Positions 18,501 through 64,000 of a stretch of DNA of 64,000 nucleotides are shown here, piece by piece. Each line of letters begins with the position of its first letter. Positions within the stretch are counted from its first letter, which is position 1. The DNA is from Mytilus trossulus (Eukaryota). The notes beneath the pieces were generated by a model that was given only the letters and a program-made list of their open reading frames with translations, did no database searches and was not told the origin of the DNA. The stretch covers positions 45,074,001 through 45,138,000 of the forward strand of contig NC_086383.1 in NCBI RefSeq assembly GCF_036588685.1, written 5' to 3'. A program made the position numbers and the translations under genes.

Positions 18501-30570
<12,070 letters not shown>

Positions 30571-30730
30571 GTAAGAAGATTTCACTGTTTTGTGTTAAAC
30601 ACTGTATTATTTAAATTTGGAGTAATTATTTAATATGGAATTTAACTAAATAATGAATTTCATGGATTTTACATGTCAAAGCTTGTTACCATGGAAACAA
30701 TAGACAACCAATTAAATATCACATCATGAA

Positions 30731-31410
30731 AAAAATCCCATCCAGCACACAAACCTATTGATAAATATAAATCCTGTGCGGCGCACAGACCTGTTAAAAG
30801 CTATAAATCCTGTGCGGCGCACAGACCAAGTGAAGATTATAAATCCTTTGCGGCGCACAGACCAAGTGAAGATTATAAATCCTGTGCGGCGCACAGACCA
30901 AGGGAAGATTATAAATCCTGTGCGGCGCACAGACCAAGTGAAGATTATAAATCCTGTGCGACGCACAGACCAAGTTAAGATTATAAATCCTGTGCGTCGC
31001 ACAGACCAAGTGAAGATTATAATCCTGTGCGGCGCACAGACCTGTTAAAAACTATAAATCCTGTGCGGCGCACAGACTTGTTGAAAACTATAAATCCTGT
31101 GCGATGCACAGACCTGTTAAAAACTATAAATCCTGTGCGACGCACAGACCAAGTGAAAACTGTAAATCCTCTGTGGTGCACAGACCAGGTGAAAACTGTA
31201 AATCCTCTGTGGTGCACAGACCATGTGAAAACTGTAAATCCTCTGTGGTGCACAGACCAGGTGAAAACTATAAATCATGTGTGTCGCACAGATTAAGTGT
31301 AGACTATCTATCCCGTGCGGCACACAGACCAGGTAAAGATTATAAACAATGTGTGGTGCAGACCAGATAAAGTTATAAATCCTGTTAGCTGCACAGACCA
31401 GGTGATGATA
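30731..31410. repeat. 36-bp minisatellite (about 19 units), each unit with the palindrome CTGTGCG-g-CGCACAG
   Basis: Unit ATAAATCCTGTGCGGCGCACAGACC(AAGTGAAGATT/TGTTAAAAACT); homogeneous core with degenerate edge units. Confidence 0.95.
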
Positions 31411-35900: not shown

Positions 35901-36126
35901 CAAAATTACATTTCAAAATAAGTTTGTCAACTCCTATCTACTAGTGTAGTCCTCGCTTAATCTTAATTGATTATTCTATTTTTACAAAGAAAATGATATT
36001 TATTTTCAGATTATTTTTTTTTAATCTATTACACTACAGCTAGTGTATATAATGGAGGACATTATAATGAAGCTTTTAGAAAATTGTTTAGAAGTGAATT
36101 ATAAATTACATTAATATTTAATTACT

Positions 36127-42100: not shown

Positions 42101-45100
42101 TAGCTTTTGACTACGTCACAATATAGTAACTTGTGTTATGATGATGTTTTTGAGGTTCCAATCAGGGATAAAAACGTTGTATATACCCTGGCAGTTTCCT
42201 GAATATATACTGACCATCTCTGTGTTGTTATCCAATCACAAACCTTGACACATTTGTAATCAGTAATATATATATATATATATGTAAAAAATACCATAAT
42301 TAAAAACATTCATAAATTACATGGCTACTGTTAAAGTGATAAAACCAATTTACCCAATTCCTTTAATTCCTTCTTCTTGTAATCCCTTGATAGCAGCCAC
42401 AAGGTGATTACCACCAAGCAAGTAAAGAGTAAAATCAGTAGATTTTATTTCTGAATTACTCTCTAGGAGTTGTCCTCTAAATTTGTCAGGATCAGAACAC
42501 TGTAATAAATGTTAATATGCATATCAACATTTTCTCATTATTTTTATTGTGTATATGACAGATTAAGTAGTAGAAAAGAATTTTGTATTTTGAAACAGTC
42601 TAGTGTATTTTAGTTATATTTTGTACTTATTTAAAAAAAAAACTTAACCATTATAGAGTGTAAATTATTGTAAATTTTAATATACAATCTGCAATCCTGG
42701 AACTATGTACAGAGAGATCAATACACTTACGTATACACTCTCAGGCTTTACAATGATTGTTGTTTTTGGCCCTGAATTCATTAACTGTTGGACCCATAAC
42801 CCCGGAAATAAATCCCAACCTTCTACTTGTGGTATTAAACATTGTGGTATAATTTTAGAGCAATCAAAATACTTATACACAAAGCATCATCCTGAATCTT
42901 GAAAATCACTTAAACTAAAGTTATTGTCCAGAAACCAATGTTTCTTTGGACGACACAGATGATGACATTATATCATTATATTTTGTATATATTGTAATTG
43001 ATCTCAGTTTTGTAGTAATAAGAATTGTTTTTGAATTAAATAACAATTAGAGTGGGCAACCGAAAATTAGATTACAGAAGCAAACAAAAAATTCAGCAAT
43101 TTTTCAATTTGTAAATGGGGCATATCTCTAGAACGGCAAAAGTGTTGTGACACCACTAAAATTCTAAATTTTTTCTGTGTTTTCTGGTAATAAGCACTGT
43201 GTTTTAGTTTTACAACAATATGGTTAAGGCAAACTGAAGTTGGAGATCATAAACAAAATTTAGGTTATACAAACTGACAAGGATAAAACTTATTGCTACA
43301 GCAAGACATTAATAATAATAATAAGATTAACGGTACCAAAACGTATGCATTAAAAGTACAAGGACATGTATATAAAAAAATGTACACTTATTCTTGATAA
43401 GTTTATACTGATTATTAATCAACTGTTATACATTACACGCCTGGAGTGCAAACCCTAAATATTAATACAGTTTTTGTTTCAAATTTTAGTATTTAAAAGT
43501 ACCTGTGATGGGTCCACTAGCACAGGCAGATGTGTCCCCTGTGGGATTGCTGCTTGCTCACGTATCTTATTTCTTATCTCCACAACCCAGTCCTCTCTTA
43601 CTGTCCTGCATAAATATTCCTGTGGTGGGCTAGAAAGGGTCTGAGCATCAACAGTAAATTCACCTATTAAAGCACAAATAATTATTTGATAATGACTTAC
43701 AATAAATTGCATGTATTACAACATTTCTTTGATTTACACCTTCTGATAATGATAAGAATCAATTGCATGCTTCTTAATATGTCCACAGTGATATTATAAA
43801 GTCAATTAAAAAAGCTTTATAAAATTGAGAATGGAATTATATAATAAAATAAATACCATTTTATATGCAGATCACAAAATCCAGGCAAATATATTTTTGT
43901 ACATTATCAACTTATCATGCTTTATATAATGATTAAAAAAATACTTGTAATTGTCTTCAATTTTAGATAATTTAATGAAATACAATTACATACATGAATA
44001 TAAAACTGTAAGAACCAAATTATTTTTAAAATTCCTACTGTTCATATGCTGTAAAAATGTTCAAAATTTCAAATAAATTACCAATCAATTTATCATCTTC
44101 AACAGATTTACCAAAACTGGGCTCAATATGGGTTACTTCTGGCAGTCTGTTCTCTTTTTCTTTGGTTATTTTTCTGGAGGGTTTGGCCTGAAAACTTTTG
44201 ATTACTTCAATGGAACCTGTATATTTGTCTTTGCCCAGTTTAAGCCCCTTCTTCTGACCAATGAAATAAATCTACAAAAAAAGAATACATATGCTTATCT
44301 TGATATGTTACATGCACATTATAGAATACAGAATGGAATCAGGGAATGTGTCAATTATGTATATATACCATTATTACTGACTTTTATTTTCAATAATCAT
44401 AATTTATAACACAATTATAAATGTTTCGAAGGTGATGGTACCCAAATTGCACCTATTTTGACAGTTTTTTCACCTACGTTTTTTTATGATCAAGAAAAAA
44501 TTTCCATTCTGTGTTTATTTTGTAGCCCTATCCTTCTTTACTGTCTAGGTACACCAGTTTGATTTTTAATCTATATTGAGTCATTAAAAATTGGGGTTGA
44601 ATCAACCTCCAAACTATTCATGATTTTGTAATGAGGAGTACCCAAATTGCATCTATGCCTAAATTCACATAGTCAAAAGTCTAATAACCGAGCTTCTGTT
44701 TAATTTCTTTAAAATATTTTGAACAATTGGATATTAGTCCATGCTTACTCTTCATATTTTACTAAATGGATTCTTATAATACATTGTCTTTGCTAATTTT
44801 AAAAAAGATGACGTTTTCGTACATTTTGCTTTTACAGTTAACATCCATCTGTTGATAAATACTGTGAACGTTTTGTGTATATCTGTAAATATGTTTACCT
44901 ATGTTGAGTATCAAATCATAAAAATAAAAATTGTTTAGTCTCTAGAAAATCTTGTAAGATTTCCGTTGCTATTCTTTTCTGAATAGGTGCAATTTGGATA
45001 CCCTTATATTATTGGTCTCTGTGTGTCATTCAAATGCTATATCCATCAAGTATACAATAATATAATTAATGGGAGGGTTATGTATATCTTTCGATATTTA

Positions 45101-45767
45101 TATACCTTCTAAAAATAGAACTCCATAATAAACACATGTAAAAATACTGGTTGCTTTATACGATGTAGTCCGGTAACTCCGCCCACATAGGGCTTTGATC
45201 TGTATATATATCTTTATTCTTTATTATATAAAAATAGCTACATATATATGTAGAGTGATCATATTATCATCAAATTCTTTAACTTTTGTACATCATTAAG
45301 GGTGTTGTCTTCTTGTTAATAAAGAATGCAAATCAACTAAATGTATGTGCGAACAATAATTTTATGTTTACGCCTACTCGGAATTTTTGTAAGTTTAATT
45401 TTAACTTTTGACACATGCGCAGATCTAATTGTTGTCTAACAAGACGACATTCATTTCGACATCTAAAAAGAAGCGATGCCCTGTACTTTAAAATCAGATT
45501 ATAAATCGGACATTGAACATTTTTTAAAGTTAAATAGGATAAAAATATACTTTAATATTGTGAGAATATTGATAGTTGGGAGCCGATAGTTGTAAATGTA
45601 GCGAACTCGCAAGTTCGTGGGCTAAAGCCGATTGATTTCTAATAAATTCTTACCAAGTAGACAAATTTACTCTCTTTGACGGATTTAACCTTCGGATATT
45701 TCTTTCCATTTTCATCAACTGCTTGTTTGCCACCAATTTTTAAAACCCCTGCGTCTATCTTCCACAT
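36127..45767 (-). CDS. ParB/sulfiredoxin-like domain protein, 8 exons, about 458 aa (putative transposon accessory gene)
   Basis: Exons 45767-45654 (MWKIDAG...FVYL), 44271-44082, 43663-43503 (LSSPPQEYLCRTVREDWVVEIRNKI...LPVLVDP), 42499-42354 (FTLYLLGGNHLVAAIKGL), 41342-41240 (LDVSVYVGLTPEEARLLGNRHN...VTFQ), 39400-39269, 38140-37924 (LFRALQGL...TWEEAYKTYP), 36440-36127 (stop). All introns are GT-AG with matching phases and there is no internal stop (1377 nt). R..REDWV / PVLV / LLGGNH..AA / VY.GLT.EEA..L...HN follows the ParB N-terminal (Srx) fold pattern. Confidence 0.8.
37307..37905 (-). mobile_element. HINE-type element with internal repeats of about 160 bp
   Basis: AACAAGAGGCTGTC...GACAGC hairpin end; repeated CAAGAACCATAACT units. 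Confidence 0.65.
44435..45005. mobile_element. MITE in intron 1 of the ParB-like gene
   Basis: GTACCCAAATTGCACCTATT / AATAGGTGCAATTTGGATAC inverted termini. Confidence 0.7.
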
Positions 45768-46079
45768 CTTGAGTTTGATTATTGACAGACGATCAGCTGC
45801 ACGTGACCAATTTACAACCACAACACAAACAAAGCGAGCAAAGTAGTTCCATCAACAATGCGCGAATTCATATGCTGTTGCCGACATTTAGCATGTTTGA
45901 AGTAAAACGCAAACAAGTTATTTCATTAACTTTATCACAATTACATCAAATATATATCTGGAGTAATAATATCTTTAGAAGTTACTTATATTACTCCACG
46001 AACGAAAATAGAATTTGGAAATCCGCACGCGATTTGACTTCCAGATCGTCTGAACAGACTGCTGAACAGCTGAAGGAAT
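45768..46079. promoter_or_regulatory. Divergent promoter between the ParB-like gene and the transposase gene
   Basis: The inferred ATGs (45767 minus, 46080 plus) are 312 bp apart. The region is CpG-richer than its flanks, with CAGCTG and CACGTG E-box motifs at about 45794-45805. Confidence 0.65.
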
Positions 46080-49000
46080 ATGGCAGATTCTGATGATTAT
46101 TTCAATTCGTTAGAAGATGTAATAGGTAAGGCTTGGTTCCCAAAAAGCATTTACACATTTAAAATACTGATGTTTCAAATAAGAATAATGATATGGCCAG
46201 TTGAGACAGTTTACAATATTTCCGTGTAAGTGTGTAACATTTGATACCCGATTCACCGTAAATCGACAACTTTCAAGGACTGAAAGTTCCAATATTTTCC
46301 TACAAAACTTCAGTAAATAAAAATTGCTCCTGCCTGTTACAGCTACAACAAGTTTTTCTCATCCATACAGTTAAATTTTCCATCAAAATTTACAATGACA
46401 TACATGTAATTATTAAAATCAAACTTGGACAGAAGCTTCTAAGTCCTCTTAATACTGACAAAAGATAGTATCTAGAGGAAAATATGAAAGAAGCGAAAAA
46501 CCTCAGTTACAAATTTTTATTGAAAAAATTGAGGTTGTTGCACCATAGCTCTGGATAAATTTTTCACCAAATAAAAACTAAATAGCAAGAATTATTTGCT
46601 TATTTAGGTTAAAATACTCAAAGTCAATGTGCTGATTTGAAATAGTTTAACAAAACCCTGCTAAAGTGACCACATGTATAAAACAAAACATAGAAAAAAA
46701 CCTATAAGCCACACTATCTTCACATGTACAAAAGAGTTAAATTTTCCACGTACAGAAACAATAAAAAAAAAAAGTGCTTTGAAACATAAAAAATATATGT
46801 ATCTAACTCCTTAATTTTTTAATTCAATGAAATGAAGGCTTACGAATTGTTTGTATCTGTTATTTACATTTAATGTCTTGCATATTATAATTGATAGAGA
46901 TAAACTGTGAACAGCAAAATTGTTCAGCAAAGTAATATCTACAAAAAAGTCAAAATGACTCTGAAACAAAAGCATTTACAGCAATCTGAAATTGGAAAAA
47001 AAATTTCATCACTTCAAGTTCTATCTGCTCAGAATTTTAAGACACATTATACCACCTGTTGATGGGTTGCTGCCCAAAATTGAAAATTTATGTAAACTTT
47101 ACAAGTTTTTGGTTAATTTCTTGAAAATAATGTTGAGTAAAGAGACCGCATATGCCCTGCAGGGCACAGCTTTATATGACTGCAAAGGTAAAAATGATAA
47201 ACCCCACCCCCTTTTTTTATTTTTAGCTCCCCTTCTAATTTCTAATGGAGTTGGCAACAATAAATACTCATTTTAATACATCATGAGTTATAAAATGTTA
47301 TATGAGGGTGGTAAAGGGGGGTACTGAACACGGAAATACATGAAATAAAAATCATAAAAACGTAGCACGAAAAATAAAAATCGAGAGAAACGAAGCACGA
47401 GAAATAAAATCGTAAATATTAAGATTGATTGTTGGTTGCTTAACGTCCAGTGTAAATATTAAGAAAAAAAGTACCAGCAGTTATTACTCAGCCGTTCTTG
47501 GAGTTCATGTAGATATTGTTAATGGACATACTGTAAAGACCTTGTGGTCACCTTTACACATCTGCTTTGAATAAATATTATTAGAATGGTAACAATATAC
47601 ATCAATTTCTATTATATTACACAAGTTTCAAAAAGTACAATAACTCACTGACTTTGAGTTAGTTTCAATTTACTTTTTCATCAACTTCTTTATGCGGAAA
47701 AAGGCAAGAACGAGAAATTAGGAGCACCGACACGAAACACAGAAAATAAATAAGGGGAAATACAAAGCATGCACATCGAACCAAACACGGAAACATGCGA
47801 AATAAAAAGGCTGAAAACGTTGCACGTAAATAACCCTTTAACACTCTCTTATACAGTCATGTTTAAAAGTAATATTAATTAATACAGAAACTTATAAAAA
47901 TAAATTTACAGCTACATGTACACATCTCAAGAAAGTCTGTTATGACCAAGCTGTCTAACAGTCAACATACATAAAAGATCAGTAATACAAGATCAAGAAA
48001 ATAAGATTATTGTCATGAATAAAATTGAAAATGGAAATGGGTAATTTGTCAAAGAGACAACAACCCGACCATAAATCAGACAAGACAGAAGGCCGCCAAT
48101 GGGTCTTGGTTGCAGCAAGTAACTCCAGCATCCAGAAGCATCCTTAAGCTGACCCATAAACAAATATATATACTAGTTCAGTGATAATGGACGTCATACG
48201 AAACTCCGAATTATACACAAAAAATAAAATTAAAAATCATACAAGACTAACAAGCTTTTGACTTGGGACAGGCACAGAAATGATGCAGGGTTAAACATTT
48301 TTTTTTTTAGATCTTGACCTTCCCGCTGTACCTCTTGACTATTTTTGTCTTCAATGTTAGTGTTCTTGATGTTTGATTTGCCCATAGACCAACTTGGGTG
48401 TCATGGCCTGCTTTTTTTTTTATATTTCCTCCTTATCCACTCACCCTGGAAATTAATTGGTAGCTCTTTATTCACATACAAATGTCAAAATCAATGTAAT
48501 ATTTTGTTCTGCCCCTTTATGGATATATTGTATATTGATTGATGCTTTAATCTGTTCAATATTTCTTTAGATTCAGATTATGTAAATTTCACAGATACAT
48601 GGATGATGGAAATGAATAGGCCTGATGAAAGTGATAATGGTGAAGGTAATAAATTTGATTAAGGATTTTGATTGTTTAAGAGGGGGTACTGCTTTATTCA
48701 TGCTTCAGTGATTCCCTATATGATCAGCCAAAGTTTTGCCAAAAAAGGGGGTCTAGGGCCTCCTGGAAAATCCTCTAAATCCACCTCTGTAAATTTTTGA
48801 ATATGTAAAACTGATTGATTATGAACATTTTTTTTTAGCCCCAAACTCAATATCACAAATTATATTTTGGTTTGAATATTCAATTACCTGATTTGACGAT
48901 ATTGTGATATGAATGCATAAAAAAACAAATTAAGTCGTGCACAGAAGACTTATTATATTATATGGTGATAAATTTTACTTTCTCGATGTCCAGCTTAGAT

Positions 49001-52000
49001 GAGGCCATTTAAATATTATAAAAATGAGAAATCTTTAAGCTAAAGGATGTCAATTCCAGTCAAACGTTGTTAGCTTAACAGTACATAGCTACAGTTGATT
49101 TCAAAACCATACAGAAGCCGACAATGACAACATTGTTGGGTTGATGTTTAGACGAGTTGTATATACATGTATATGAGGATACTTTTTATATGGCGTTCCA
49201 AATATCGTTTCGATCCCTAACATCACTGAAGAGACATTTAATGTCGAAATCCTGATCTGGTGTACTAAAATATATTGACACTGTATGTTTGTGGCATAAG
49301 ATCGCGGCCACAAGTTTAAAAAGTGTTTCTGTTTAGTATTAAATTTATTTTAAGATCCATTTGGTTACATCTTGTGATCAATTTTATTTGGCAATTGTCA
49401 ATGGCAGTAAGCAGGGTTAAGAACATCAGTTGTTCGACCGGTTAGTCAAATGCGTTTTGTTTAAATATGCTTTTTCACTTTTTGGGTCTTTTGGAAAATG
49501 TTGTTTGTGCAATTTAGACTCGTATATATATATATATATATACAGATATAGAAGGATGTGGTATGAGTGCCAATGAGACAACTCTCCATCCAAATAAAAA
49601 TTCATAAAAGTAAACCATTGTAGGTCAAGGTACAGCCTTCAACAAGGAGGCTTGGCTCACACAGAACAACAAGCTATAAAGGGCCACAAAAAATACTAGT
49701 GATAAACCATTTAAACAGGAAAACCAACAGTCTTATTGCTTAAAAAAATGAAAAATGCATTTGTTCAAGATTGGATCAACATTATTTTTTACCAGTCACT
49801 CATTTCATATAATTTATAAAATGTATGCTATAGGTACAAATGTATAGTTATGTTTTAATCTGTTCAATAATTCTTTAGATTCAGATTATGAAAATATCAC
49901 AGATACATGTATGATGGAAATGAATAGTCCGGATGAAAGTGATAATGGTGAAGGTAATAAATTTAAGGTGGCTTAGGGTGTCTTAATAAAAACTGACAGA
50001 ATTTTTTGATAACTTGTCAAAATGAAGCTTTTATCATGCTTTTTTCAAATTGTCAGATTTTGAATAGCTTATTAATGGAAAATCAAATTTTGTGTGATAA
50101 AAAGAAAACGTTCTATAAGAACTTTAAGACAAAATGTGAGAATATTGCTCTTATAACATGCTTTCAAATAAGTAAAAGAAAAATGGGGTCACTGAACTTG
50201 TTTTCTTGCTACATATTGAAATAGGTAAATTTATAACACTTTCTATTGTAAAAATTACCTCATCGGAGTTATTTCCCCTTATTTGTCAAATTTAGAAAAA
50301 ATCTAATGAAACAGAAACAAGGTGTTTTTGAAAATTACAACTGCAATTATGTTTAAACACACAATTTTCTATATTCATATCAAAAGTCTTGTACAAAAAT
50401 TACATACAACTCTCAAAATTTGCACATTTCACCAAATATATAGACTAAAGATATCTGCTTATTCAAAATCGAAGATGGAGGAAGACACCCAAGCCTTATT
50501 AATTAATGATTTTGATTGTATAAGTAGCAAAAACTTAAAGTTTGTAGCTCCCAATTGTAATATTATAAGATTTATTCCAATCACAAATATCATCCCCAAA
50601 TGCATGATTTCCTTGGATTATGCTTTCATGCATATTACACTTACTACTGTATAACAATTTATACTGCAACCAGTTGTTTGTTTCCTAAATATAGTAATAC
50701 AGCTATATTTTCTGCAATGAGAATTTTATCATGCAACACTTTTCCACAATCAGGGGTTCCTAAAGGATGAAAATAAGTTTGAATTTAGTTTTACAATTTT
50801 AATAGCTATCATTGTATTAATTTAAGTTGCAGTACAAAAACAATATAAAGTCAATTTAAAACAAATATAAATTAACTTAGAGATACTCCTGCTTGCATGG
50901 TTACAATTTCTAAAGTAAATTTCTTAAAATTAATTTACTATTTTGAATTAAGTGAATTTATTTATTTTTCAAATTTCAGACAGCTATCAAGATACAGATG
51001 ATTCTGAGCTAGAATGCGAGTCAGGAGATGAAGTTGCGGAAAATATTGAAGCTGCAGGTAAATACTTTAAAGATGTGTATCTAAGGTTCTATGTTACACA
51101 ATTTAATAGAAAAAAAACAAGGTGTTCGCCTTTTTACTGATTTTTTGTCAAGCCTGCAACTTTTTTTGCAGAAAGCTCGACATAGGGATAGTGATATGGT
51201 GAGGGCAGCAGTGGTGTTAGCTAACAGTCTTAAAAGCTTTATATTTTAGAAGGTGGAAGACCTGGATGCTTTATACAAGTTTAATTTGACCTTGACCTCA
51301 TATTTATGGTTCATTGCTTAGTGTTTAGTACATGTATTTGTGTTTTAGTCTTCATGTTATCATGGTAATGTTTGCATTTCAGCACATAGAAAAAGAGGAA
51401 GACCATTTGGGTCTTCTGTTGACTGTCATCTGAATTATCCTGGAGATGAAACAATGGAAACTCCTGTGAGAAAAAGTAAGTAGCATGTATATATAATTTT
51501 ATATGTTCAGCCCTATGTCAACTTGGATGCAGACCATTAATCACCCCCCTTTATTGCATGTCTACCCATTATCACACACAAAAATTCTTCGGCGGTTCCA
51601 AAATGGAAACAGTCATTACAGCATTTTTCTCAATAAAATCACAGTCTTCACGTAGAACCAAAATTTAAAGGCCCAACAGCCCAGGCTTTTAAAATTGCTC
51701 TTGTGCCTGTAAAAATCAGTATACGTGTTATCAAATTGTTAGAAGGTACAAGGGATGTGACACTAAATTCATCTGTGTGTCCAATGTAAGACATTCTATG
51801 TTTGTGCTTATAATTGCTGGATGCTTGCCTAAGTGACATAAACCAATCACCGTTTTGCATGCACTTAAATATTCAGAATCTTTCAAAGGCAACTCATTGA
51901 CCCACTCAATATATTTTGATAAAATATTATATGAAAGTAAAAGTGTATCACATGTTTGTGTGCTTGAAGCGAGATGATTATTTCTGATGTTTTTAAAGGG

Positions 52001-55000
52001 AGATAATCCAATTAATGGGTTTTATGTTGTCACTTTGGGCTGTCACTCAGTAAGCTCATTTTCATTCCATTTATTTACATTTTGCAGAAAGAAGAAGCCT
52101 GAAAGCACTGACATCGTTCGCATACATGGTTTGCTGTTCAATGCTTTGCATATCAGGATTGGACATTATGACCGCAGAGACAGTTCGAAATAATTTTCAA
52201 TCCCTGTCTACAAATGAAAGAAGTCAGTTTATTCTGAATTGGCTACAAAGCCATTCTAGGTATATATTCATTACTGCACAATTTTCATCTCTCATCATGT
52301 TTATATTTCAATATAAGAAGATGTGAAATGATTGCCATTCAAAATATCAGCAATTACAATTAGGAGATAACTGTATTGTAATTTAAGCTCCGACGGCACC
52401 TACCGTCACTGATGAGTCTTTTGTAAATGAAATGCGCCTCTGGCATATATAAATTTTAGACCGTTGGTTTTCCCGTTTGAATGGTTTTACACTAGTAATT
52501 TTGGGGCCCTTTAAAGCTTGTTGTTCGGTGTGAGCCAAGGCTCTGTGTTGAAAGCCGTACATTGACCTATAATTTTTTAATTTTTTTTAAATTGTTATTT
52601 GGATGGAGAGTTGTCTCATTGGCACTCACACCAAATCTTCCTATATCTATTTATAATGACAAAAATATCTTTAACTTATGACAACATAAAAATGTAAATG
52701 AATACTGATTAAATAAAACATGTTCTTATTCTCTTTTAGGATCAATGAGCTTACTTGCAAGTATGAGTTCAAGTACCTGATAGGTACATCTTCAGTGTGT
52801 CTATCAGCCTTTCTACTGGTTCTTGGAATCCCCAAATCAACGTACTATAGTATTCAGAAAAAGTTTTATGGTAAATATATAATTGCATCACACAACTAAA
52901 ATTGAATATGCTTTCATTTTTCTGATTGCTAGCAGTTATATATTTAAGCCCACTTATGGTATTTCATCCATTCTAGGAACACATCTGTTTCACTGAGACA
53001 GAATTTTGTAGATTCAAACTTCTATTAAAGAAGAAGTGAAAAAAAAAATCCAAGCTGTCAACATAACAACAGTTTCAGAATCATAAACCCAAATTGTTTT
53101 AACAACATTAACCTTTCAAGTATTAAATACACACAGGTATTTTTTCTGGTAAAAAAAAATGTTATGTATGAACATATTTGAAGTTTCTTGTGTCTGGCTA
53201 CATGAGTAATATAATTCTTATCGTCCATTCCATTCAATTATAGATGGATCAGTTGTCATCAATAAAATTGGTAATCGTCTTGGTAGAATGAAAGCTTCTA
53301 GCCAAAGTGCAATGACATGGTTGCATATGTATGCAATCCAGTTTGGTGAGAAATTACCCAATCAGGAGAAAATACACCTACCACCATGTGTGACCAAAAA
53401 GTCTATTTACAGTGAGATGGTTGAATACCAACATGACAAAGGGGAACCAGAAGTTATTTCCATGTCACATTTTATGTTACTCTGGAGAACATGTTTGTGT
53501 CATATTGCCATCCCTAAGGTAACAAATCCATTTTGCCAAAAATAAAATATTGTTTGTTTCCCCAATTCCAACCGACCCAGCAAAATCGGTCCTACTCAAA
53601 CAAATTTATTGTCCAAACTTAGTCAAATATTATTTTATTCATTTCTGAATTTCAGGCTTACCAGATCAACCGGCTAAATTCCAGCTTTTAGGAAAAAATA
53701 AAATTATTTCCCTACCTACCTACCCACACCTGGCTTCGCAGGGTCAGCATTTGGGAAACAAACAATATATTAATTTAGGCCTAAATTAATGACCTGAATC
53801 ATTATTTGTATTTAATTCTTATAAAACTTGGAAATTGGGGAATACATCGACATTAAAAAAATGAAGTTATAAGTTTTAAAAGGCCAAATTGTTTATTGAA
53901 GTGATAACCTAGGAAAGAAAGTCTGAATTAGAAATCACAAACAAGTACATTTTTATGTTGATATACAAACAAAATCATAACAAGAATTAACATCCCATCA
54001 ACGACCTCATTTAACCCTGTGTGTCAGCAGCACTAATTTTGATGAAAAACTTGTTAAATAATAAGAATTTTTTTATTCTTGGATCATATATATTTTAAAA
54101 CTACCATATATCAAGGTTCAGAAAATAGAAATTGCCTTTGAACTGTAAATAAAGTTTTTTTTACGTTTCCATGTGATAGATGCAGACACCGTAGAGCCTT
54201 CAATAGTGAGCCTATTTACAGAGTTGATTTATTTTTCAGGTATCAAGATTTTCCAAATGCAATAAATGCATCAAAATAAAGACAAAACTTTCTTCAACAA
54301 GAAGCAAGACAAAAAAGCAAGAACTACAAAGAAGGAGAGAAAAACACTTAAAACAACAAAAGTTAGTGTTGTAAACTTTTCATTATTTCTTAATAATATT
54401 AAAATTTTCTCTTGAAATCTTTAAGTTATTTCATAGATAAGATGGTTCATTCTCTTTGGTAACATTTATGATTTATAAATCATGTACATATACTTGTTTT
54501 GTAAATATATAAACACACTTATTTCTCAGATCAAATGTTTCAATCAATTTTCAAACTGATTTCATTATAACAAGGCACTTAACCCTGGCTTTAATTTTAT
54601 TCATAACATAACTGGAATTATTTAGATTTAAAATCACTTCTTTCCAAATGTGAAAATAAGTTAATAATTGTCAAGAAACTTGCTGCTTTGAAGAAAAAAA
54701 ATTGATATATTACAATTTAATTGAACTTCAAAGTCGTTGTATGTTTAATATATTGATATAATGGTTTTTTTTGGTTTTTTTTATGATTACACAATATATT
54801 TTGCTATTATCAATTGAATTACTACACATGTGGACATTTACATATAAATGTCAATTACTTTAAATAGATTTTATCAAAAATCAATCAATTAGGATTACAA
54901 TTATCTCATCCCTTCTTCATTTCCTTTTATTTATTCTTTCAGCATGGAAAGAAGGAAATATTACAAGCATATTCAGAAAGCTAAAGAACAACCGGAAAAA

Positions 55001-58000
55001 TATTTATCTGTCATAATTGACTCAATGGACCAAAGCAAAACTCAGCTTCCACACTTCCTGTATAAATCAAAGTTTACAGGTAATATGTGGAAGCTGAGGG
55101 TCCACTTAATTGGGGTTTTGCTTCATGGAATAAGCACATATGGATTTTTTGACTTATTTGAATATCCTCACTCAGCAAATCTCACAATCTCAACATTGAT
55201 AAACATATTGGCAGGTTTGGAAGACATCCCACCTGTCCTTTACCTGCAAATGGACAATTGTTACAGGGAAAATAAGAACAGGTTATTTACTTTTATTTAA
55301 CTCTATGACCATTGATTGAAAGAATGTTACAATATAACAAAATTTAAGAAAACAATACATAAAAAATCCTGAAATTTGTGCTTTGTGAATTTTATTCATG
55401 AAATCTTCAATGAAATTTATCAATTTAAAGTTTGAAAATATGATCTGTCATTGAAAAAGCACTTTTTAAAATACAGAAATGCTCAATAAAAAAATGCAAC
55501 TTGTATTTTTAATTAAAAAGAGATAATGAACCTATCGGAAGATATTTTGTTGAGTTCAAATACTGTTCGATGTAGGAATTTATTTCTTATGTTTATTGAT
55601 ATCAAATATATGTATTACAGATTTGTCTTTGGATTCCTTTCATTGTTAGTGGAGCTGGGTGTATTTAAAAAAGTTAAAGTGTCATTCCTTATGGTAGGAC
55701 ATACACATGAAGACGTTGACCAGGTATTTTCAAGGTACGTAATATATAACATAATGCTAAAATTACCTTTTTGCTATCCTTGACCAGCAAAGTAAGACCT
55801 ACAAATAAGTTAACATGACCAAAATGTCAGTCAACCCCTTAAGGAGTTATTGCCCTTTATAGTCAAATTTTATCAACTTTTCTTCTTTTTTTGTAACTTG
55901 AACAAAAATCTTCTTCTCTGAAACTGCATGGCCAAATTTAACAAAACTTTGCCACAATTATCATAGTGGTATATAGTTTAAAAGATGTGTTCCATGACCC
56001 TGCCTACCAAACAAAATGGCTGACATGATTAAAATTAGAACATAGTGGTAAAATGCAGTTTTTGATTTATATCTTTGAAACTAAGACATTTAGGGCAAAA
56101 CTTTCAAGATTTAAATGTCCATCAGAATAAGATCTATCCCCTCACAAATGATGAATCTGACAACTTGTTGTTGGGTTGCTGCCCTAAAATTGGTAATTTT
56201 TAGGAAATTTTGCAGTTTTTGGTTCATATCTTGAATACTTTTAAAGATAAGATAAGCTGTAAACAGCAATAACGTTAGCAAAGTAAGATATACAAATAAG
56301 TCAGCATGATCAAAATTGTTAGAGGACCCCTTAAGGAGTTATTGCCCTTTATAGTCAACACCTTTTCTTCATTTTTGTAACTTGTACTAAATCTTCTTTT
56401 CTATAACTATGGGCCAAATTTACCCAAACTTGGCCACAATTATTACTAGGGTATCTATTTAAAAAAGTGTTAAATGACCCCACCTACCAACCATGATGAC
56501 TGACATCAGTAAATACAAGTGAGCAACACAGGCTCTTGAGAGCCTCCACTGGACGTTAAGCAACCAACAATCAATCAATCATTCTAATGCAACAAAGTTT
56601 GTAACGTTCATTTTGATTGGATAACGTCACTTTCTTACATGGCATCAATTGACAATTGATGCTATGGGACGTACGCGCAAGCGCAGACGGCATATGACAG
56701 ATTTTAAATACATGTTTTAACGTTGTTTTCTCTCAGTTTCATTAGAATGGAGATAACAATATTGTATTTTAAGCTCCGACGGCATCAATTTGGGATTTGA
56801 TGGTCGCAAATACCCGTTTACTGTCTCCGCTAACGCGTCGCCAGTAAACTTAATTTGCGACCATCAAATCCCCAATTGATGCCGTCGGAGCTTAAAATAC
56901 AATACAGTTATCTCCTAAATCTTGAGAGCCTCTAGTTAAGATTAGAATATGAAAAGTAAATAAAGGCACTACAGACACCAAGTGATGGCAATAACTCACA
57001 CAAACCTTTAAGGCTAAGGTCAGAAAACACAAATGTTAACTGTTTTACACATGTCTGTCATTCTGTCCATCTGTTTTATGAATACTTTGACACATTTTTC
57101 TGAGCAACTGAATAATAAGCTTTTCTAAAATTTGATATCAATGTTTATATGAGTGAGCTAGACTGTAATGCTTTTTTCAGATTGACTAAACAGCAACTTC
57201 CTGTTTAACAAACACTAAAAATTTCTACACATGACCAAAAAAAAAGTGAACTATGTTCTGATGTATGGTTGCCGTGTTTTCTTCATGCTACAATTCTGTC
57301 TTAATTTAATTGCAGATTTTCTTCCTGGTTGGCAAGACAGGCAGTTCTTACATTGCCCAAACTTATGAGAGCTTTTGAGTCATGCACTACTCCAAATCCA
57401 GTGTCAGTTCAAACATCAAAAGTGTGGGATATAGCTGGCTGGATATCTCAGTATCTGAACAAAATGTGTAACCATTCATACCCCCACATATTTAAGATAA
57501 TCAAGAAAGATGAGAAAACAAGACTGTTTTACAAAAAATGGTCAACTGACAAGGTATAATTAAATACTTTCAAATACTAACAAATTATGTAATAAATGAA
57601 TTAGTTATTTATTTTGTTTGAATGTTATGAATCAGTTATTTATTTTGTTTGAATGTAATGATTTGATTTAAAGTACTTGGAATCCATCAGTGTAGAATCT
57701 TTTGCTGTTTGTCAACCACAGCATTTTCATTTCAACATGTATCCTCAGTGATGGAGGATCCAAGACTTGAAAAGGGGTGCCCACTACTTTTATTTATCCT
57801 GTAAGCAGTAAGGGGAATAAATAGGGGCATCCCGTACAAACTTTGTATAACACTGTTTATGAACTTTTAGAAAATACACTTTCATCATTCTATTTATTTG
57901 GACCAACATATGTGAAAGATCTGTAATATTTAAAAATATTCTGTCAAGACAGAATGCCTTAATTTTCAGGAAACCTGGAGCACTTTTAATCTTATAATTG

Positions 58001-59099
58001 TAGAAGTTACATGTCAATACATTCAGTAATTTAAAAACGTCTGCTTCCTTATTAGCTCACCTGGCCTAAAAGGCCATGTGAGCTTTTCTCATCACTTGGC
58101 GTCCGTCGTCGTCGTTAACAATTTTTCAAACATCTTCTCCTCTGAAACTTAGCATGATTGTTCCTTAGTATATTCTGCACAAAGCATGCAAAGTGTGTGC
58201 TTGGATTTTTGATCCGTCAAAAAACATGGCCGCCGTTACTTAAAATAGAACATAGGGGTCAAATGCAGTTTTTGGCCTATATCTTAAAAACGAAAGCATT
58301 TAGAGCAAATCTTACATGAAGTAAAAATGTTCATTAGGTCAATATCTATCAGCCCTGAAATTTTCAGATGAATCAAACAACCCATTGTTGGGTTGCTGCC
58401 ACTTAATTGGTAATTTTAAGGAAATGTTGCAGTTTTTGGTCATTATCTTGAATATTATTATAGATAAAGATAAACTGTAAACAGCAAAAATTATCAGCAA
58501 AGTAAGATCTACAAAAAGTCAGCATGACCAAAATTGTCAATTGACCCCTTAAGGGGTTATTGTCCTTTAATGACAATTTTTCACAATTTATTCATCATAT
58601 TTGCTACCTTTAAAAAATCTTCTCCTCTAAAACTACTCAACCAAATTCAACCAAACTTCAACTGAATGATCAGTAGGGTGTATAAAATAAAATTTGTGCT
58701 TCAAAGAACATTTAAATTAATTGAAAAGCCAAAATAATCATTGATGAGAGATTTAACCAAAAAAAATCAGGTGAACGATTCAGGCTCTTGAGAGCCTCTT
58801 GTATTATGGTAACTGTCATCCAATCAGAACCCTTGATACACAAATTGCTTTAAAATTATTTACATACTGTAACAAAATGTGGTTAAAAATGTCAAATATA
58901 TTTCAGACTTGGCAAGAACCAGAGGAGCAGCTTCTACTTAGTGTTCCCACAGACTCTCCAAAAATAATAATTCCTGACTACAACAAAATAGACCTGGCCA
59001 AGCTAAAAAACGATATCACTGGTTCATTTTCATATTTCAAGAGAGAGGAAGATAAAAAGTGGTGGACTGATTTTTTCACAGATCTTTCTAGTAATAATG
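46080..59099 (+). CDS. Spliced DDD/E transposase-like protein (DUF7869 / Sola1-like), at least 13 exons and 650 aa, 3' incomplete
   Basis: Exons 46080-46125 (MADSDDYF..), 48571-48645, 49879-49953, 50980-51057, 51383-51475 (AT-hook-like RKRGRP), 52088-52259 (CCSMLC), 52740-52870 (VCLSAF...GIPKSTYY), 53244-53518, 54240-54361 (FSKCNKC...H), 54943-55281 (IIDSMDQSK ... LYLQMDNCYRENKNR), 55621-55734 (SFLMVGHTHEDVDQVFSR), 57316-57553, 58907-59099. All phases are consistent with no stop over 1951 nt, and the candidate acidic triad is intact. Confidence 0.88.
56749..56915. repeat. Long hairpin (about 167 bp) ending a short non-autonomous element; same architecture at 25389-25557, 36857-36944, 38746-38889 and 41672-41830
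   Basis: GGAGATAAC..ATTGTATTTTAAGCTCCGACGGCATCAATT / AATTGATGCCGTCGGAGCTTAAAATACAAT..GTTATCTCC. Confidence 0.85.
58048..58802 (+). mobile_element. HINE-type element (related partial copy at about 55780-56550)
   Basis: TTAGCTCACCTGGCC...(CGT)n...CAGGTGAACGATTCAGGCTCTTGAGAGCCTCTTGT; shares internal sequence with 55780-56550. Confidence 0.7.
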
Positions 59100-59596
59100 G
59101 TCAGTACCAATTTAAGTTTATTTGATTAATTAACAACAAAAAAAGTTATTTCTTTATAAATATTCAAAATTTAGAAAAATCCTACAGACAAAATAAAATT
59201 TTCATTAGGGCCAAAATGTATGATGTATTCCTTCAATACTACTATATGCTCTCCCAACGTGGCAGGTATTTATATTTATACTGTGGGTTTTTCCTTGTGC
59301 AAATACAGTGGTTAAACGAAACTATCTGCCAAAAAAAGTATCATGTAGCAGAGATTTTAAGATTGTAAACATGTGCTACAACACAACTCAGCATTATCAA
59401 GCCTTAATGATATATAAAATTATAAATTTTTCCATGTTAGATTGTTAATATCCTTTGATGTCAGCTCCCGTTAGATTTTAATAAATTTTTCAGTAATTTT
59501 TCTTTTTCATAAAAAAAAGGGGGGATTTTTCAGTTTGCGACAATAATTGAAAAATGCTTTCAGCAATTCTCAAGAATTGTTTGTGAATTGTTTATA

Positions 59597-59598
<2 letters not shown>

Positions 59599-59631
<33 letters not shown>

Positions 59632-62600
59632 TTGTTTTTCAGTAGTCAGGCTTTTACAATCCCTTTACATCACCACCTGACTATGGTGTTAAGAGGTTTG
59701 ATATATATATATACAACAAAAAATTGACTACATTTTTTTCTTCTAATGTGAATATATATTATTTAAATATTAACATTATAATAAAAAGTGGAAAAGAAAC
59801 AATCACACACACATACACACACTCTCGCACTTGCATTAACATAACATAAATCAACTTGTGTATTGCAAAGAAAAATGTTATCTTTGTAAAGATCTGCTCT
59901 TTATGAACTGTAAGTTTCATTTTTTATTTTATATGATTTGAATCAAAAGTAATGGTGACTAATCAGTAAAAATGTAATCTAATGGGGCCCAGAATTTTTG
60001 AAAATAAGGTGTGGTACCATTTTTCTTTGCTATATAATGTTCATTTTCCTGATATTTTCTTATTTTTGCTAATAACCCTATAATACTTGGTTTCTTTTCA
60101 TACAATTTACATTTGTATATATAGTTCTTTGCAATAATAATAATCAAATTCAACAGTAAACTCTCATTTTGAAGACCAAGAAAAATGTGCTTCTTAGATA
60201 ATGTAAAGTTCACAAAATATCTTTTCAGTTTTTGTGAAAAAGTTTGCCATATAAAATGTGTTATTGGACATTCATAGAATAAATGCTCCATGGTTTCATC
60301 AGAAACCTTACAAAAAGTACAAAGCTTTGAATCTTTAAGTTTAACTTTATATAAGAAAGTGTTAGTTGCAATTATTCTATGTAAAAATTTATATTGAAAA
60401 GTTCTTAAATAAGTGTCTTTACATGATTTTCTTAAAATAACATAATATTCTGACCAATCTGCAATTTCAATACCTAGTGATTCCTCCCATTGTAAGAACT
60501 TTTCTGTTGGCAGTTGCACATTTCTGTCAACAAGATCTTTGTATACAAACTTTGCCTTTTTGTTACACAATAATCTTTCCAAAAAAATATCAATACAGTT
60601 AAAAGTTTCAAAATTTACATGAGCAATCTTTTCTTTAATATATTCTCTCATATACTTTGGAATGTTAGCAATGAGACCATAATACTTTAAAAAATTATTT
60701 GTTTGAAGTCTTGGTCCTATCTTATCAAAATTACAAAAGTCCTTAGTCTCTAAGTTAATAAGGTCAAACAAAGACTGCACTCCCCTTCTATGCCACTGAA
60801 TAAAATACGGAAAATCTACTAGAGGTGCGAAATTTAAAATATCTAATGACAAAATATCTTGAACAGAAATATTGGTAGCAGGCTTTGCTACATGAAAGCT
60901 AAAAAAAACATCCTTCCAAAAAGGATTGCTAAGACTATCAGAGATTTCTCTGAGTTTCTCCTTTTGAAAATGCAATACCCTTTCTCCACCATACTGTTCA
61001 AGGTTTTTTAATAATAATGATTGCCAACTACCATATAAATTGGATGAAAACCTCTTTATCCAGCCAATCTTAAGGTATATATTAAAATAATGTATATTAA
61101 TCATATTTAAACCTCCTTGTGGAATATCTCCGATTAAAGTACTTCGTCTAATTCGATCAGGTTTTCCATTCCATATGAATTGAAAGAATAAAGTATTCAA
61201 CTCATTTAATTTTGATTCTGGCAAGTTGGGTAGTGCAGTCAACAGGTGAATTAATTTTGGAAGTGCCAAAGTCTTGATAACAGTAATCTTTCCCATTAGG
61301 GTTAATTTTCTATGTTGCCAACTCTTAAGAATGCCTGACACTTCCTTTATCTTTTTGGAGAAATTAATTTCTGGCATACTATCAAGATCTAAAGAGAATT
61401 CAATTCCCAAAAGTTTAAAATTTGAATAGCACCACTGAAGTTTTAAATCAGGACAGAGAATCAGATCTGAATACTTTTTATTCCCAACCCACACAGCTTT
61501 AGTTTTAGAAGAATTAATTTTTAACCCAGATACTTTTTGGAATGAGTCGAAACAATTTAAAGTCTCCCTCAAAGATGTTTCAGTTCCATCCAAAACAAGG
61601 AAAGTGTCATCAGCATATTGACTCAAAAGGGATTCATTTTCATGAACAAAAGTTCCCTTTATTTTGGGGTTTGACCTTATTTTCATAGAAAGTAACTCAA
61701 CACCTATAATAAAAAGATAAGGGGAGAGGGGGTCACCTTGTCTACAGCTTCTCTCCAAATTAAAGAAGCTTGAAAGATGGCCATTATTTATAACACAACT
61801 TGATGCTTTCAAATAAAATACTTCAAACCATCTGCATATAGATGGCCCAAAATTGAAACTCTTCAATGCTTTTTTCAAAAAAGACCATTCAATAGAGTCA
61901 AAAGCCTTTTCAAAATCTACTAGTAGTAAAAGACCAGTTTTGTTATGCTTTTCCAAATAGTGCATCAAATCATACAATAGACGTGTATTCTCACCCATAA
62001 ATCTATCTTTAATAAAGCCTTTCTGACAGTCACTGATAATAGATGGTAAAACAGGTTTTATTCTATTAGCAATAACGGCAGAAGCAATCTTGGTGTCAGT
62101 ATTCATAAGGCTAATTGGGCGCCAATTAGCTAGATAACGTCTATCTTTATCTTCTTTTGGAATACAGGTAATGACACTTTGATACTGAAATTTAGAAAAT
62201 TCCCCATTTTCATAGCCAAAATATAATGATCTAAAAAGAAAAGGTCCAATATCTCGCCAAAAGACTTTGTAAAATTCTACAGTATACCCATCTGAGCCTG
62301 GACTCTTTCCATTTGACATAGATTTTAGAGATTCTGCACATTCTTTAAAAGAAATATTACCCTCACACAAATCCTTCTCTTCTTCTGTGAGTTTAACATT
62401 GTGCTTGAAAAAGGAATCATCATCACATTCCAGATTTTTACTTGAGTATAATGTTTTATAAAAATTCATTTCTTCTTGTAAAACTCTAGATTGATCTGAT
62501 ATATGTTTTCCATTTTCATCTATGAGCTCAGTTATCGTTTTTTTAATAAAATTTTTCTTTTCCAATTTACAAAAAAACTCTGAACACTTTTCCCCATTCT

Positions 62601-64000
62601 CTTGCCAGTTAGCGTGGGATCTTAAAAAAACACCTTCAATTTTTCTTTCTCTTATATTTTCTAATTCTAACTTTTTCTGGTTTAAAGCTGCATGAATTTG
62701 ACCATCAGGAGATATGTTCATATGATTTTCCAAACTTTGAATGTCATTTTCCAGTAAAAGTGTTGCAGCTTTTTCCTCTCTAGCTTTTTGAATACTGTAA
62801 CCAATAGACAAAGATCTAATTTTCATTTTTATCAACTCAAAAAATACTTGATCATTGCATGAGAGTTTAACATTTAACAGATCATCTATGTTGCCTGATT
62901 CATAATATTCTAAAATACTCTCATTTATACATGTTTTAACTTTTTTGATATAGTCTAAATCTCGCAACAGTTGGGAGTTAAATTTCCAATATCCCTTTCC
63001 CCGCTTTGCTAAACTGGCAGAAAAGGTGAAAGTTATAGCTGAATGATCTGTCTTATACCCAGGAATAATGTTAGTATTTTTCATGAGTGAAAACAGATCC
63101 TCTGTGACTAGAAAAAAATCAAGCCGACTTTGTTTTATGGGTGAGCATTGACGCCATGTATATTTTCTATCGTTTGGATAACAGGTCCGCCAAGGATCTA
63201 ATAACTCAAGACTTTCTACTATTTCTTCAATCTTTTTTCGTGAGTTTGGGTTTCTATTATGAATAATATTGTAAGTGTCTATGTTTGTATCTTGTACAAC
63301 ATTCCAGTCCCCACATAATAAAAAGCTAGTATTTGAAAATGATGCCATTTTCTTATAAATGTCATTAAAAACTGAAGGTTCATCAGTATTAAATCCATAC
63401 AAACAAACAAAAGTAATGCGTTGACTTGACAAGGATAAATCTAAGATAATATAACGACCATCTATATCAATAATAGAATTATGCACTTCAAAATCAAGAC
63501 CTAATTTGAACATAATACTGACACCTGCACTTTTGTTACTATGATGACTGAAAAAACATGTATTTCCCCATTCCTCTTCCCATTTTTTTTCAATATCTTT
63601 ATTACTATGGGTTTCTTGAAAGCAAATTACTGAAGCATTTTTGCCCTTCGCCCAATCAAAAACATCTGTTCTCTTTTTTGAATTAGAAAAAAGACCCCTT
63701 ACATTCATAGACAACACTGTTACAATATTATCCATTATCATATAAAACAAAACAATATTTCAAACTTGAGCAGATAAATTCTAACTTAAAAACCAATACA
63801 CAATCATAGTTTATACAATCATACACACATTCAACAATAAGATGACACTTTGGCATAGATACCTGTAAAGTCATTTTTGTACAACAAAATTTCATTTACA
63901 GTATGGCATTTAATTATTTACAATATAAAGATAGTTGTTTTCTAAAGACAATGTATTAATTAGTATATATATTTAGTTGAGAGATTCATGATAAGTAAAA
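59599..64000 (-). mobile_element. L1/Tx1-clade non-LTR retrotransposon with poly(A) tail; 5' part outside the window
   Basis: Poly-T at 59599-59629 on plus, 3' UTR 59630-59958, complete ORF2, AT-rich spacer upstream of ORF2. Confidence 0.93.
59959..63750 (-). CDS. L1-Tx1 ORF2: APE endonuclease, reverse transcriptase and C-terminal zinc finger, 1263 aa
   Basis: NVRGL, QETH, GDWN, SRLDFF, TDH (APE); KSPGSDG, WRPISL, LLVDFEKAFDS, RQGDPLSP, QYADD (RT); CTFC...ETMEHLFYECP. Confidence 0.97.
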   Translation of the reverse strand: MFYMIMDNIVTVLSMNVRGLFSNSKKRTDVFDWAKGKNASVICFQETHSNKDIEKKWEEEWGNTCFFSHHSNKSAGVSIMFKLGLDFEVHNSIIDIDGRYIILDLSLSSQRITFVCLYGFNTDEPSVFNDIYKKMASFSNTSFLLCGDWNVVQDTNIDTYNIIHNRNPNSRKKIEEIVESLELLDPWRTCYPNDRKYTWRQCSPIKQSRLDFFLVTEDLFSLMKNTNIIPGYKTDHSAITFTFSASLAKRGKGYWKFNSQLLRDLDYIKKVKTCINESILEYYESGNIDDLLNVKLSCNDQVFFELIKMKIRSLSIGYSIQKAREEKAATLLLENDIQSLENHMNISPDGQIHAALNQKKLELENIRERKIEGVFLRSHANWQENGEKCSEFFCKLEKKNFIKKTITELIDENGKHISDQSRVLQEEMNFYKTLYSSKNLECDDDSFFKHNVKLTEEEKDLCEGNISFKECAESLKSMSNGKSPGSDGYTVEFYKVFWRDIGPFLFRSLYFGYENGEFSKFQYQSVITCIPKEDKDRRYLANWRPISLMNTDTKIASAVIANRIKPVLPSIISDCQKGFIKDRFMGENTRLLYDLMHYLEKHNKTGLLLLVDFEKAFDSIEWSFLKKALKSFNFGPSICRWFEVFYLKASSCVINNGHLSSFFNLERSCRQGDPLSPYLFIIGVELLSMKIRSNPKIKGTFVHENESLLSQYADDTFLVLDGTETSLRETLNCFDSFQKVSGLKINSSKTKAVWVGNKKYSDLILCPDLKLQWCYSNFKLLGIEFSLDLDSMPEINFSKKIKEVSGILKSWQHRKLTLMGKITVIKTLALPKLIHLLTALPNLPESKLNELNTLFFQFIWNGKPDRIRRSTLIGDIPQGGLNMINIHYFNIYLKIGWIKRFSSNLYGSWQSLLLKNLEQYGGERVLHFQKEKLREISDSLSNPFWKDVFFSFHVAKPATNISVQDILSLDILNFAPLVDFPYFIQWHRRGVQSLFDLINLETKDFCNFDKIGPRLQTNNFLKYYGLIANIPKYMREYIKEKIAHVNFETFNCIDIFLERLLCNKKAKFVYKDLVDRNVQLPTEKFLQWEESLGIEIADWSEYYVILRKSCKDTYLRTFQYKFLHRIIATNTFLYKVKLKDSKLCTFCKVSDETMEHLFYECPITHFIWQTFSQKLKRYFVNFTLSKKHIFLGLQNESLLLNLIIIIAKNYIYKCKLYEKKPSIIGLLAKIRKYQENEHYIAKKNGTTPYFQKFWAPLDYIFTD

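Follow-up and report, generated by a model that had tools for sequence, protein, structure and literature searches.

How a transposase gene spread over more than a dozen introns can stay in frame while those introns take in other transposable elements (TEs) is the question raised by a 64,000-nt stretch of the Mytilus trossulus genome (NC_086383.1; G000:C11:45074001-45138000), hereafter the window. A sequence-only reading had described 13 visible exons joined in frame by 12 GT-AG junctions, proposed at least 13 introns full of TEs, and taken the intact frame as a sign of selection on either a long-lived active element or a domesticated host gene. Our answer, which we hold with high confidence as a whole, is that the gene encodes the spliced DDD transposase (three catalytic aspartates) of a giant (about 33-40 kb) Sola1-type transposon, recently spread together with its intron cargo and likely moved by cut-and-paste, and that a second, ParB-like gene would likely encode a helper binding palindromes in the element's ends. 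Taken by itself, this helper role is the weakest step of the explanation, and we put it forward tentatively, at somewhat short of an even chance. The earlier reading had seen neither the 40-kb element nor its second, ParB-like gene, nor the MCM3 intron that hosts it.

Within the window, the 13 exons and 12 GT..AG introns of the transposase gene give 650 stop-free codons, as had been claimed. Two further exons past the window end bring the gene to 15 exons and 14 GT..AG introns (19,090 bp in total) and complete an 817-aa product with no stop in this copy, which we call W, so the proposed minimum of 13 introns held and the exons beyond the first view proved intact. The product is letter-for-letter identical to RefSeq protein XP_063407546.1 (P0032), labelled at its source as an uncharacterized Mytilus trossulus protein. 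Exons 10, 11 and 12 match consecutive positions of the Pfam profile DUF7869 (4-74, 76-112 and 114-192, respectively), and intron 12 is skipped at its GT..AG in contigs of all four sequencing runs (four studies, two organism labels), among the 15 of 207 joints listed for these contigs; parts without cover were not taken as absence, and that the runs hold RNA is a guess, with 0 of 24 runs having RNA on record. In one 870-nt contig, exons 10 and 12 are separated by about one exon-11 length. Because the profile matches run on across exons 10-12 and intron 12 is skipped in run contigs, we consider the gene model to be beyond chance.

Mytilus proteins of two other species are 97% and 94% identical to the transposase, and in M. 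californianus and M. edulis the gene or accession numbers of the transposase and the ParB-like gene are neighbours. No transposase exon exceeds 120 codons, so TE screens based on open reading frames (ORFs) would overlook these elements. Separately, public records list genes of these elements as ordinary uncharacterized host genes, and pieces of them (P0015, P0017, P0022, P0024 and P0051) stand under public names such as ‘ATP binding’, ‘LAMB1’, ‘nipped-B-like’ and ‘CCKAR’, apparently because of fused models or mis-annotation.

The gene lies within a 39.8-kb element that carries long inverted ends and sits inside an intron of the host gene MCM3, on the same strand as the transposase (Table 1). 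The MCM3 exon downstream of the element has one full match in the genome. Past the element, a ~50-bp duplication (L047:7045-7100) comes before the next MCM3 exon. Searching the genome with the element's end returned 17 matches, which resolve into six paired-end copies, a diverged 35-kb pair (H) that accounts for three of the matches, and two single ends, G and a weak one. The six near-identical paired-end copies are W (39.8 kb), B (32.4), C (30.5), F (26.1), A (22.2) and E (8.6), on five chromosomes, C1, C6 (two), C9, C11 and C14, with the single-end copy on C2. In four copies the terminal inverted repeats extend over about 550-590 bp at 85-87% identity, the first ~120 bp at 97-99%.

Table 1 Features of the element, its host gene and its relatives. 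Positions are those of the window unless a prefix is given; L047 is the stretch past the window end.
Feature	Coordinates	Strand	Remarks
Giant DNA transposon, copy W, putative Sola1 type	30598..64000, continuing 6,405 bases past window end (window 30598 to 70405; G000:C11:45104598-45144405)	+	39,808 bp
Left target-site duplication	30594..30597	+	GTTA, 4 bp; identical four bases after right end
Left terminal inverted repeat	30598..31330	+	5'-AACACTG; vs right end, first ~120 bp 99%, ~550 bp 87%
Transposase exons 1-13	46080..59099: 46080-46125, 48571-48645, 49879-49953, 50980-51057, 51383-51475, 52088-52259, 52740-52870, 53244-53518, 54240-54361, 54943-55281, 55621-55734, 57316-57553, 58907-59099	+
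Transposase exons 14-15	L047:1716-1858, L047:3264-3623	+	past window end
Tandem duplication of 75-nt acidic exon	48542..49964	+	exons 2 and 3; single in copy C (collapsed)
RNase H-fold catalytic core (DUF7869)	54943..57553	+	predicted triad D382, D460, D502; from Pfam, alignment and predicted fold
ParB-like gene	36127..45767; exons about 45767-45654, 44271-44080, 43661-43503, 42502-42353, 41341-41240, 39400-39270, 38143-37925, 36441-36127	-	head-to-head with transposase
542-bp loss in W	40361..40369		9-bp microhomology; removes 105-nt sixth exon of ParB-like gene
Degenerate 105- and 138-bp tandem copies of ParB-like 3' end	33400..35900	-	last ~45 codons, amplified past stop; unit number varies between copies
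Hairpin repeat, intron 11	56586..56917		private to copy W; missing from A, B, C, D
Dispersed repeat, intron 12	58052..58798		750 bp
L1-Tx1-like long interspersed nuclear element (LINE), intron 13	59585..64000 + L047:1-1529	-	full-length, 5.9 kb; 15-bp target duplication; open ORF1 319 aa and ORF2 1260 aa
MCM3 exons just upstream of element	about 29816-29946 and 30514-30571	+	host gene
MCM3 exons resuming after element	about L047:7101-7196 and L047:7701-7910	+	host gene
Family 2 element	G000:C9:14191072-14224442		33,371 bp; head-to-head gene pair; AACAG ends; 1.3-kb ends; exact duplication
Family 3 element	G000:C11:41345891-41438173		92,283 bp; 463-bp ends 98.7% alike; exact 4-bp duplication; AACAA ends; transposase (P0008/P0034) head-to-head with ParB-like gene

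The copies align with each other through their introns and differ pairwise by 0.13-0.51%, introns included; homology stops at an identical terminal base and the flanks are unrelated. Exact 4-bp target duplications border six of the eight paired copies examined (W, B, E, F, H and a second family; permutation p=0.0002), against one of eight for 2 bp and none of eight for 3, 5 or 6 bp. High copy identity, together with tandem arrays near the ends that could seed recombination, might instead suggest segmental duplications or assembly artefacts. We find this reading the least credible of all those weighed: the copies share a terminal base but have unrelated flanks, and each has its own target duplication and private indels. 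A target model with insertion between AA and TT and no duplication was dropped, since 4-bp duplications outside AA/TT are exact at six of eight sites.

The same ends bear on the class of the element. CACTA/EnSpm elements begin with CACTR as their first bases and make 2-3-bp duplications. A CACTA/EnSpm (CMC) assignment could appeal to the CACTG that occupies bases 3-7 of each end, to tandem repeats in subterminal position and to the presence of two spliced genes. It is nevertheless very improbable: AA precedes CACTG in all copies, so that the ends read AACAC, related families have AACAG and AACAA, the duplications are of 4 bp rather than 2 or 3, and no CACTA transposase family was matched in Pfam.

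Multiplicity likewise speaks to whether the gene has been domesticated, that is, kept under selection for a host function. An intact 817-aa frame, closely similar proteins in two Mytilus species, spliced contigs in four runs and conserved exons would all fit a host gene. A single-copy gene without ends or duplications is not what we found: the gene is multicopy at unrelated sites with at least 99.5% identity, is bounded by inverted ends and 4-bp target duplications, lies within an MCM3 intron, and many of its copies are deleted or frameshifted. We therefore consider domestication hardly plausible; of the two alternatives left by the sequence-only reading, the long-lived and recently mobile element that tolerates intron cargo stood and the domesticated gene fell. 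Copies A, E and F are internally deleted yet retain both ends, and copy D has lost its ends and carries frameshifts in exons 9, 12, 14 and 15. Exon 10 has 49 matches in the genome, four at 100% protein identity and one at 96%. Many decayed relatives of exon 10 cluster on C5 (about 23-72 Mb), which may reflect local hopping.

The protein itself points to a transposase. Its predicted structure (predicted local distance difference test, pLDDT, 68.5) begins with an acidic disordered N-terminus bearing a KRGRP motif; then come helical and winged-helix-like parts and a CxxC..H cluster, and after these an RNase H core and a barrel at the C-terminus. Across an alignment of 17 homologs, some of them from sea urchin, lancelet and hemichordate, D382 and D460 never vary, and D502, C322, C325 and H351 are nearly invariant; the candidate catalytic acids, Cys/His cluster and AT-hook-like motif picked out earlier are intact. 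In the model, D382 and D460 stand at the ends of strands 376-383 and 454-460, and D502 at the start of helix 501-514. Foldseek ranked TnsB, IstA, integrases and Mos1 at the top (best E 8.5e-4), and VIA gave Z 8.5-8.7 to integrases and Mos1, while a search of solved structures with the sequence gave no match at E<=1. Residues 715-817 resemble chromo and PWWP domains with middling scores (VIA Z about 7, root-mean-square deviation (rmsd) 2.6-3.1, 67-68 aligned), and all 30 of the ESM Atlas matches to the C-terminal domain are unnamed. We infer that D382, D460 and D502 would cut and join DNA and that the chromo/PWWP-like barrel may read chromatin.

Judged from sequence, the gene is a DUF7869, Sola1-type DDD transposase. 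The stretch around its second aspartate, LQMDNCYRENKNRFV, is spaced as the Sola1 profile consensus lysDncagqNknsfv, in an unscored by-eye comparison with published profile letters; the first-aspartate motif IIDSMDQ fits the Sola1 profile's vsfdlqk loosely at best, and by eye the Sola3 motifs dwaqk and dnaGcYhs were not matched. An RNase H fold with three predicted catalytic aspartates, a 4-bp target duplication and terminal inverted repeats agrees with the Sola superfamily. The 5'-AAC ends of three families (AACAC, AACAG and AACAA) agree with Sola1, as compared with one reference element (AACCG).

We then asked what the introns carry. Of their 19,090 bases, 4,784 match other DNA among 528,700 bases compared, and the L1-Tx1-like LINE adds 5,944, together about 56% as a lower bound; introns 5, 7, 8 and 9 had no match in that comparison. 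The description of introns full of TEs is accordingly about half true. The LINE is missing from all six other copies that cover its site and found no match among the 528,700 other bases, so it is possibly young and low-copy. This LINE and the intron-11 hairpin are the only clearly private intron insertions of W. The 750-bp repeat of intron 12 is present in W, A, B and C and not in the older copy D, and was therefore copied along with the element. Most intronic repeats of W are shared cargo, inherited with the element.

Purifying selection on the exons, as had been proposed, is supported. Among W, A, B and C, with the duplicated exons masked, 7 of 2,258 exon sites vary against 84 of 8,875 intron sites (p=0.0015), and each of five young copies carries no small indels in exons and 4-15 in introns. 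Against copy D, the ratio of nonsynonymous to synonymous differences (pN/pS) is 0.43 (p=0.008); against three other families, pS is saturated at 0.79-0.84 and the nonsynonymous divergence (dN) is 0.49-0.58. Selection appears to act on the transposing lineage, with copies decaying after mobility stops. The intact frame of W also reflects the youth of this copy, and most of its cargo was inherited rather than gained here.

Opposite the transposase stands the ParB-like gene, the two start codons (45767 and 46080) lying 313 bp apart. Its nine exons are whole (493 aa) in copies B and F, and its introns 1 and 2 are skipped in two and three of the four runs, respectively. The structure, predicted with confidence (pLDDT 79.9), has a ParB N-terminal fold with a helical domain over residues ~95-360 (Foldseek prob 1.00), and all nine Foldseek matches at E<=0.001 are Noc, ParB, KorB or Spo0J; VIA gave Z 9.2 (rmsd 4.6, 210 aligned) and Z 8.8 (rmsd 2.9, 96 aligned). 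Relatives number 71 among cluster representatives, with named ones in clam, nemertean and annelid (10 of the 71 looked up), and UniRef names one homolog a ParB/Sulfiredoxin domain protein. The proteins share a motif, GGNHLxxA (G184 in 44 of 45, G185 in 43 of 45, H187 in 43 of 44), whose GGNH stands where bacterial ParB has its arginine patch (GxRRxxA). ESM Atlas returned DUF3723 at 0.95 with 165 shared features, a lead only, and a homodimer prediction scored 0.00, which is evidence for neither side.

A 15-bp palindrome is repeated 13 times in the left end of W (at 36-bp spacing), eight times in its right end and nowhere inside, and B has the same counts. If the ParB-like protein is a helper, these arrays would be its binding sites. 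We give about an even chance to a different arrangement, in which the element is equally mobile and Sola1-type while the ParB-like gene regulates it, marks it chemically or merely travels along as a neutral passenger, and it is the transposase that binds the palindromes. In favour of this arrangement, transposases often bind at subterminal repeats, and four copies (A, C, E and W) exist without a complete ParB-like gene, although the protein could be supplied in trans. A marking role has a parallel in algal ParB accessory proteins, described as fusions with DNA-modifying domains that are proposed to mark the element encoding them (PMC12477816; bioRxiv 2025.02.11.637652). The Pfam search of the 493-aa mussel protein found no family, methyltransferases and oxygenases included, which argues against marking; a neutral passenger sits poorly with the retention of the gene, conserved exon borders included, across three families with transposases only 41-47% identical.

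These three families show that the element has relatives of the same design in the mussel genome. Family 2 has its own 14-bp palindrome (14 left, 12 right, 1 inside) and family 3 its own 16-bp palindrome (7 left, 6 right). The exon tested in family 3 is single-copy, so this 92-kb element could have expanded where it stands. Of 171 candidate places for its ends, 40 were scored as matches; they belong to a high-copy family with ends 91-93% like those of the 92-kb element and many pairs separated by 30-50 kb, and exact 4-bp duplications flank two of four such non-coding pairs; the one relative read (G000:C65:2481298-2513333, 32 kb) holds neither gene, only nested LINE pieces and repeats. Intron positions and phases are shared with the transposase at 5 of 6 modelled introns in family 2, 7 of 12 in family 3 and 3 of 7 at a decayed locus, in a comparison that used partly faulty automatic models (two junctions failed at the C7:50.94-Mb locus, and family 2 exons were missed). 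Because positions and phases are common to families at 41-47% amino-acid identity, the introns are old. Ends of family 2 also recur in short relatives, including one on C14 (5.6 kb, exact duplication). Public protein model P0079 joins exons from both opposite-strand family 2 genes, apparently as an annotation artefact. An inverted pair around the C7:50.94-Mb transposase proved not to be a terminal repeat.

Together, these observations suggest how the element could work. Most likely, the spliced transposase would bind the ends and excise the element, which would insert at AT-rich sites with a 4-base stagger. Insertions into introns would be carried along, tolerated because they are spliced out of the message and because transposition would require nothing in cis beyond the ends. 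Deleted copies would be mobilised in trans by intact ones, and because broken copies ride on intact ones, selection would act through transposition. Excision, insertion, intron cargo and trans mobilisation as pictured here follow from the anatomy of the copies and DDE/D chemistry. The ParB-like protein could load on family-specific parS-like arrays and bring together ends 30-90 kb apart, or it could repress the shared promoter. The boldest version we regard as speculative and on balance unlikely: that cut-and-paste transposons of 30-90 kb, which would rank with the largest in animals, form a clade in mussels and beat the length limit through a ParB-like protein pairing parS-like end arrays.

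Several points weigh against this explanation. No transposition event was observed, and an empty MCM3 allele, sought in this assembly, was not found, the left flank being single-copy. The 4-bp duplications are inexact in A and C (two of eight), and both genes are whole in one of the seven near-identical copies (B), W itself being without a ParB exon. A related transposase locus at C7:50.94 Mb showed neither a ParB-like gene nor matching ends over the 60 kb examined. The RNA-like contigs cannot be attributed to copy W specifically. The transposase fold scores are modest, from pLDDT to E and Z, and the Sola1 assignment is based on a by-eye motif match and end structure. CTP (cytidine triphosphate) use by the ParB-like protein is uncertain because GGNH replaces the arginine patch. 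Finally, single-pair tests of exon against intron substitutions reach p<0.05 in only one of six, and of the eight exon differences that these tests counted against copy C, five arise artefactually from its collapsed exon 2/3 duplication.

Elsewhere in the window, an intronless 578-codon frame with B-box and NHL matches (TRIM-like) lies at 1563-3299 (+), and broken LINE-like reverse-transcriptase frames, judged from translations, lie at 11148-12780 (+) and 17542-18201 (-). Rfam gave no matches over 29000-64000.

DNA transposition has been described as falling steeply as elements grow longer, and diploids as expected to purge giant elements (PMC6431247; PMC12477816), which have been linked to haploid-phase organisms (PMC12477816). 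In the mussel, a diploid animal, copies of 22-40 kb bearing nested cargo and 14 old introns have recently spread, and one landed in an MCM3 intron. Copy B, with both genes whole, defined ends and candidate binding sites, makes the ParB-like accessory role and large-cargo delivery directly testable. If ParB-aided pairing is true, a eukaryotic transpososome would have taken over a bacterial chromosome-segregation device. What part TEs play in mussel presence-absence variation was described as left open (PMC7653742), and these elements are of the right size for testing it; if they do contribute, the large hemizygous blocks that underlie gene presence-absence variation in Mytilus would come directly from them and from their many 30-50-kb non-coding relatives.

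Among known systems, the Sola group as described has a DDD transposase, 4-bp duplications and inverted ends of 11-1,124 bp, with most elements 2-9 kb long and some above 15 kb (PMC10741241); curated bivalve Sola1 elements average 5,445 bp (PMC10294476), and the published Sola1 profile carries a D-N-C-x-x-x-N-K-N motif (PMC5751038 supplement). The mussel element shares the DDD transposase, 4-bp duplications, inverted ends and motif, and at 39.8 kb differs from most Sola elements in length. Bacterial ParB, Noc, KorB and Spo0J resemble its second protein in predicted fold, and the 14-16-bp palindromes differing between families are a further likeness; the mussel protein is set apart by 12-17% identity, the GGNH motif and no ParA partner seen. 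Plavaka elements of Bostrychia (17-19 kb) are giant DNA transposons whose ParB-domain accessory gene, PAG3, is accompanied by inverted-repeat arrays proposed as binding sites (bioRxiv 2025.02.11.637652). The mussel element likewise combines such a gene with palindrome arrays; unlike Plavaka, an EnSpm/CACTA element with a ParB-2OG oxygenase fusion and arrays beside the gene, it has its arrays in both termini.

We found no report of such a design in animals in the literature within view, although Repbase and subscription journals, outside that view, may hold these families. In brown algae, giant families are described as carrying nested TEs fixed across copies, and Sola1-1_Ec32 of Ectocarpus as a 21,549-bp element with AACCG ends, a 4-bp duplication and an opposite-strand gene for ParB plus methyltransferase (PMC12477816). 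Like it, the mussel element is a giant Sola1 with 5'-AAC ends, long imperfect inverted ends, a 4-bp duplication and a ParB-like gene opposite the transposase. Unlike it, the mussel element lives in an animal, spans 33-40 kb with a 92-kb relative, has 14 transposase introns and bears palindrome arrays inside both ends; going by the descriptions, its 493-aa accessory protein, with no methyltransferase domain found, also differs from the 1,104-aa one of Sola1-1_Ec32, which has such a domain. The closest precedent is thus this brown-algal element; new here are the host, an animal, the size, a ParB-like protein that stands alone, palindrome arrays in the termini and 14 introns of old age.

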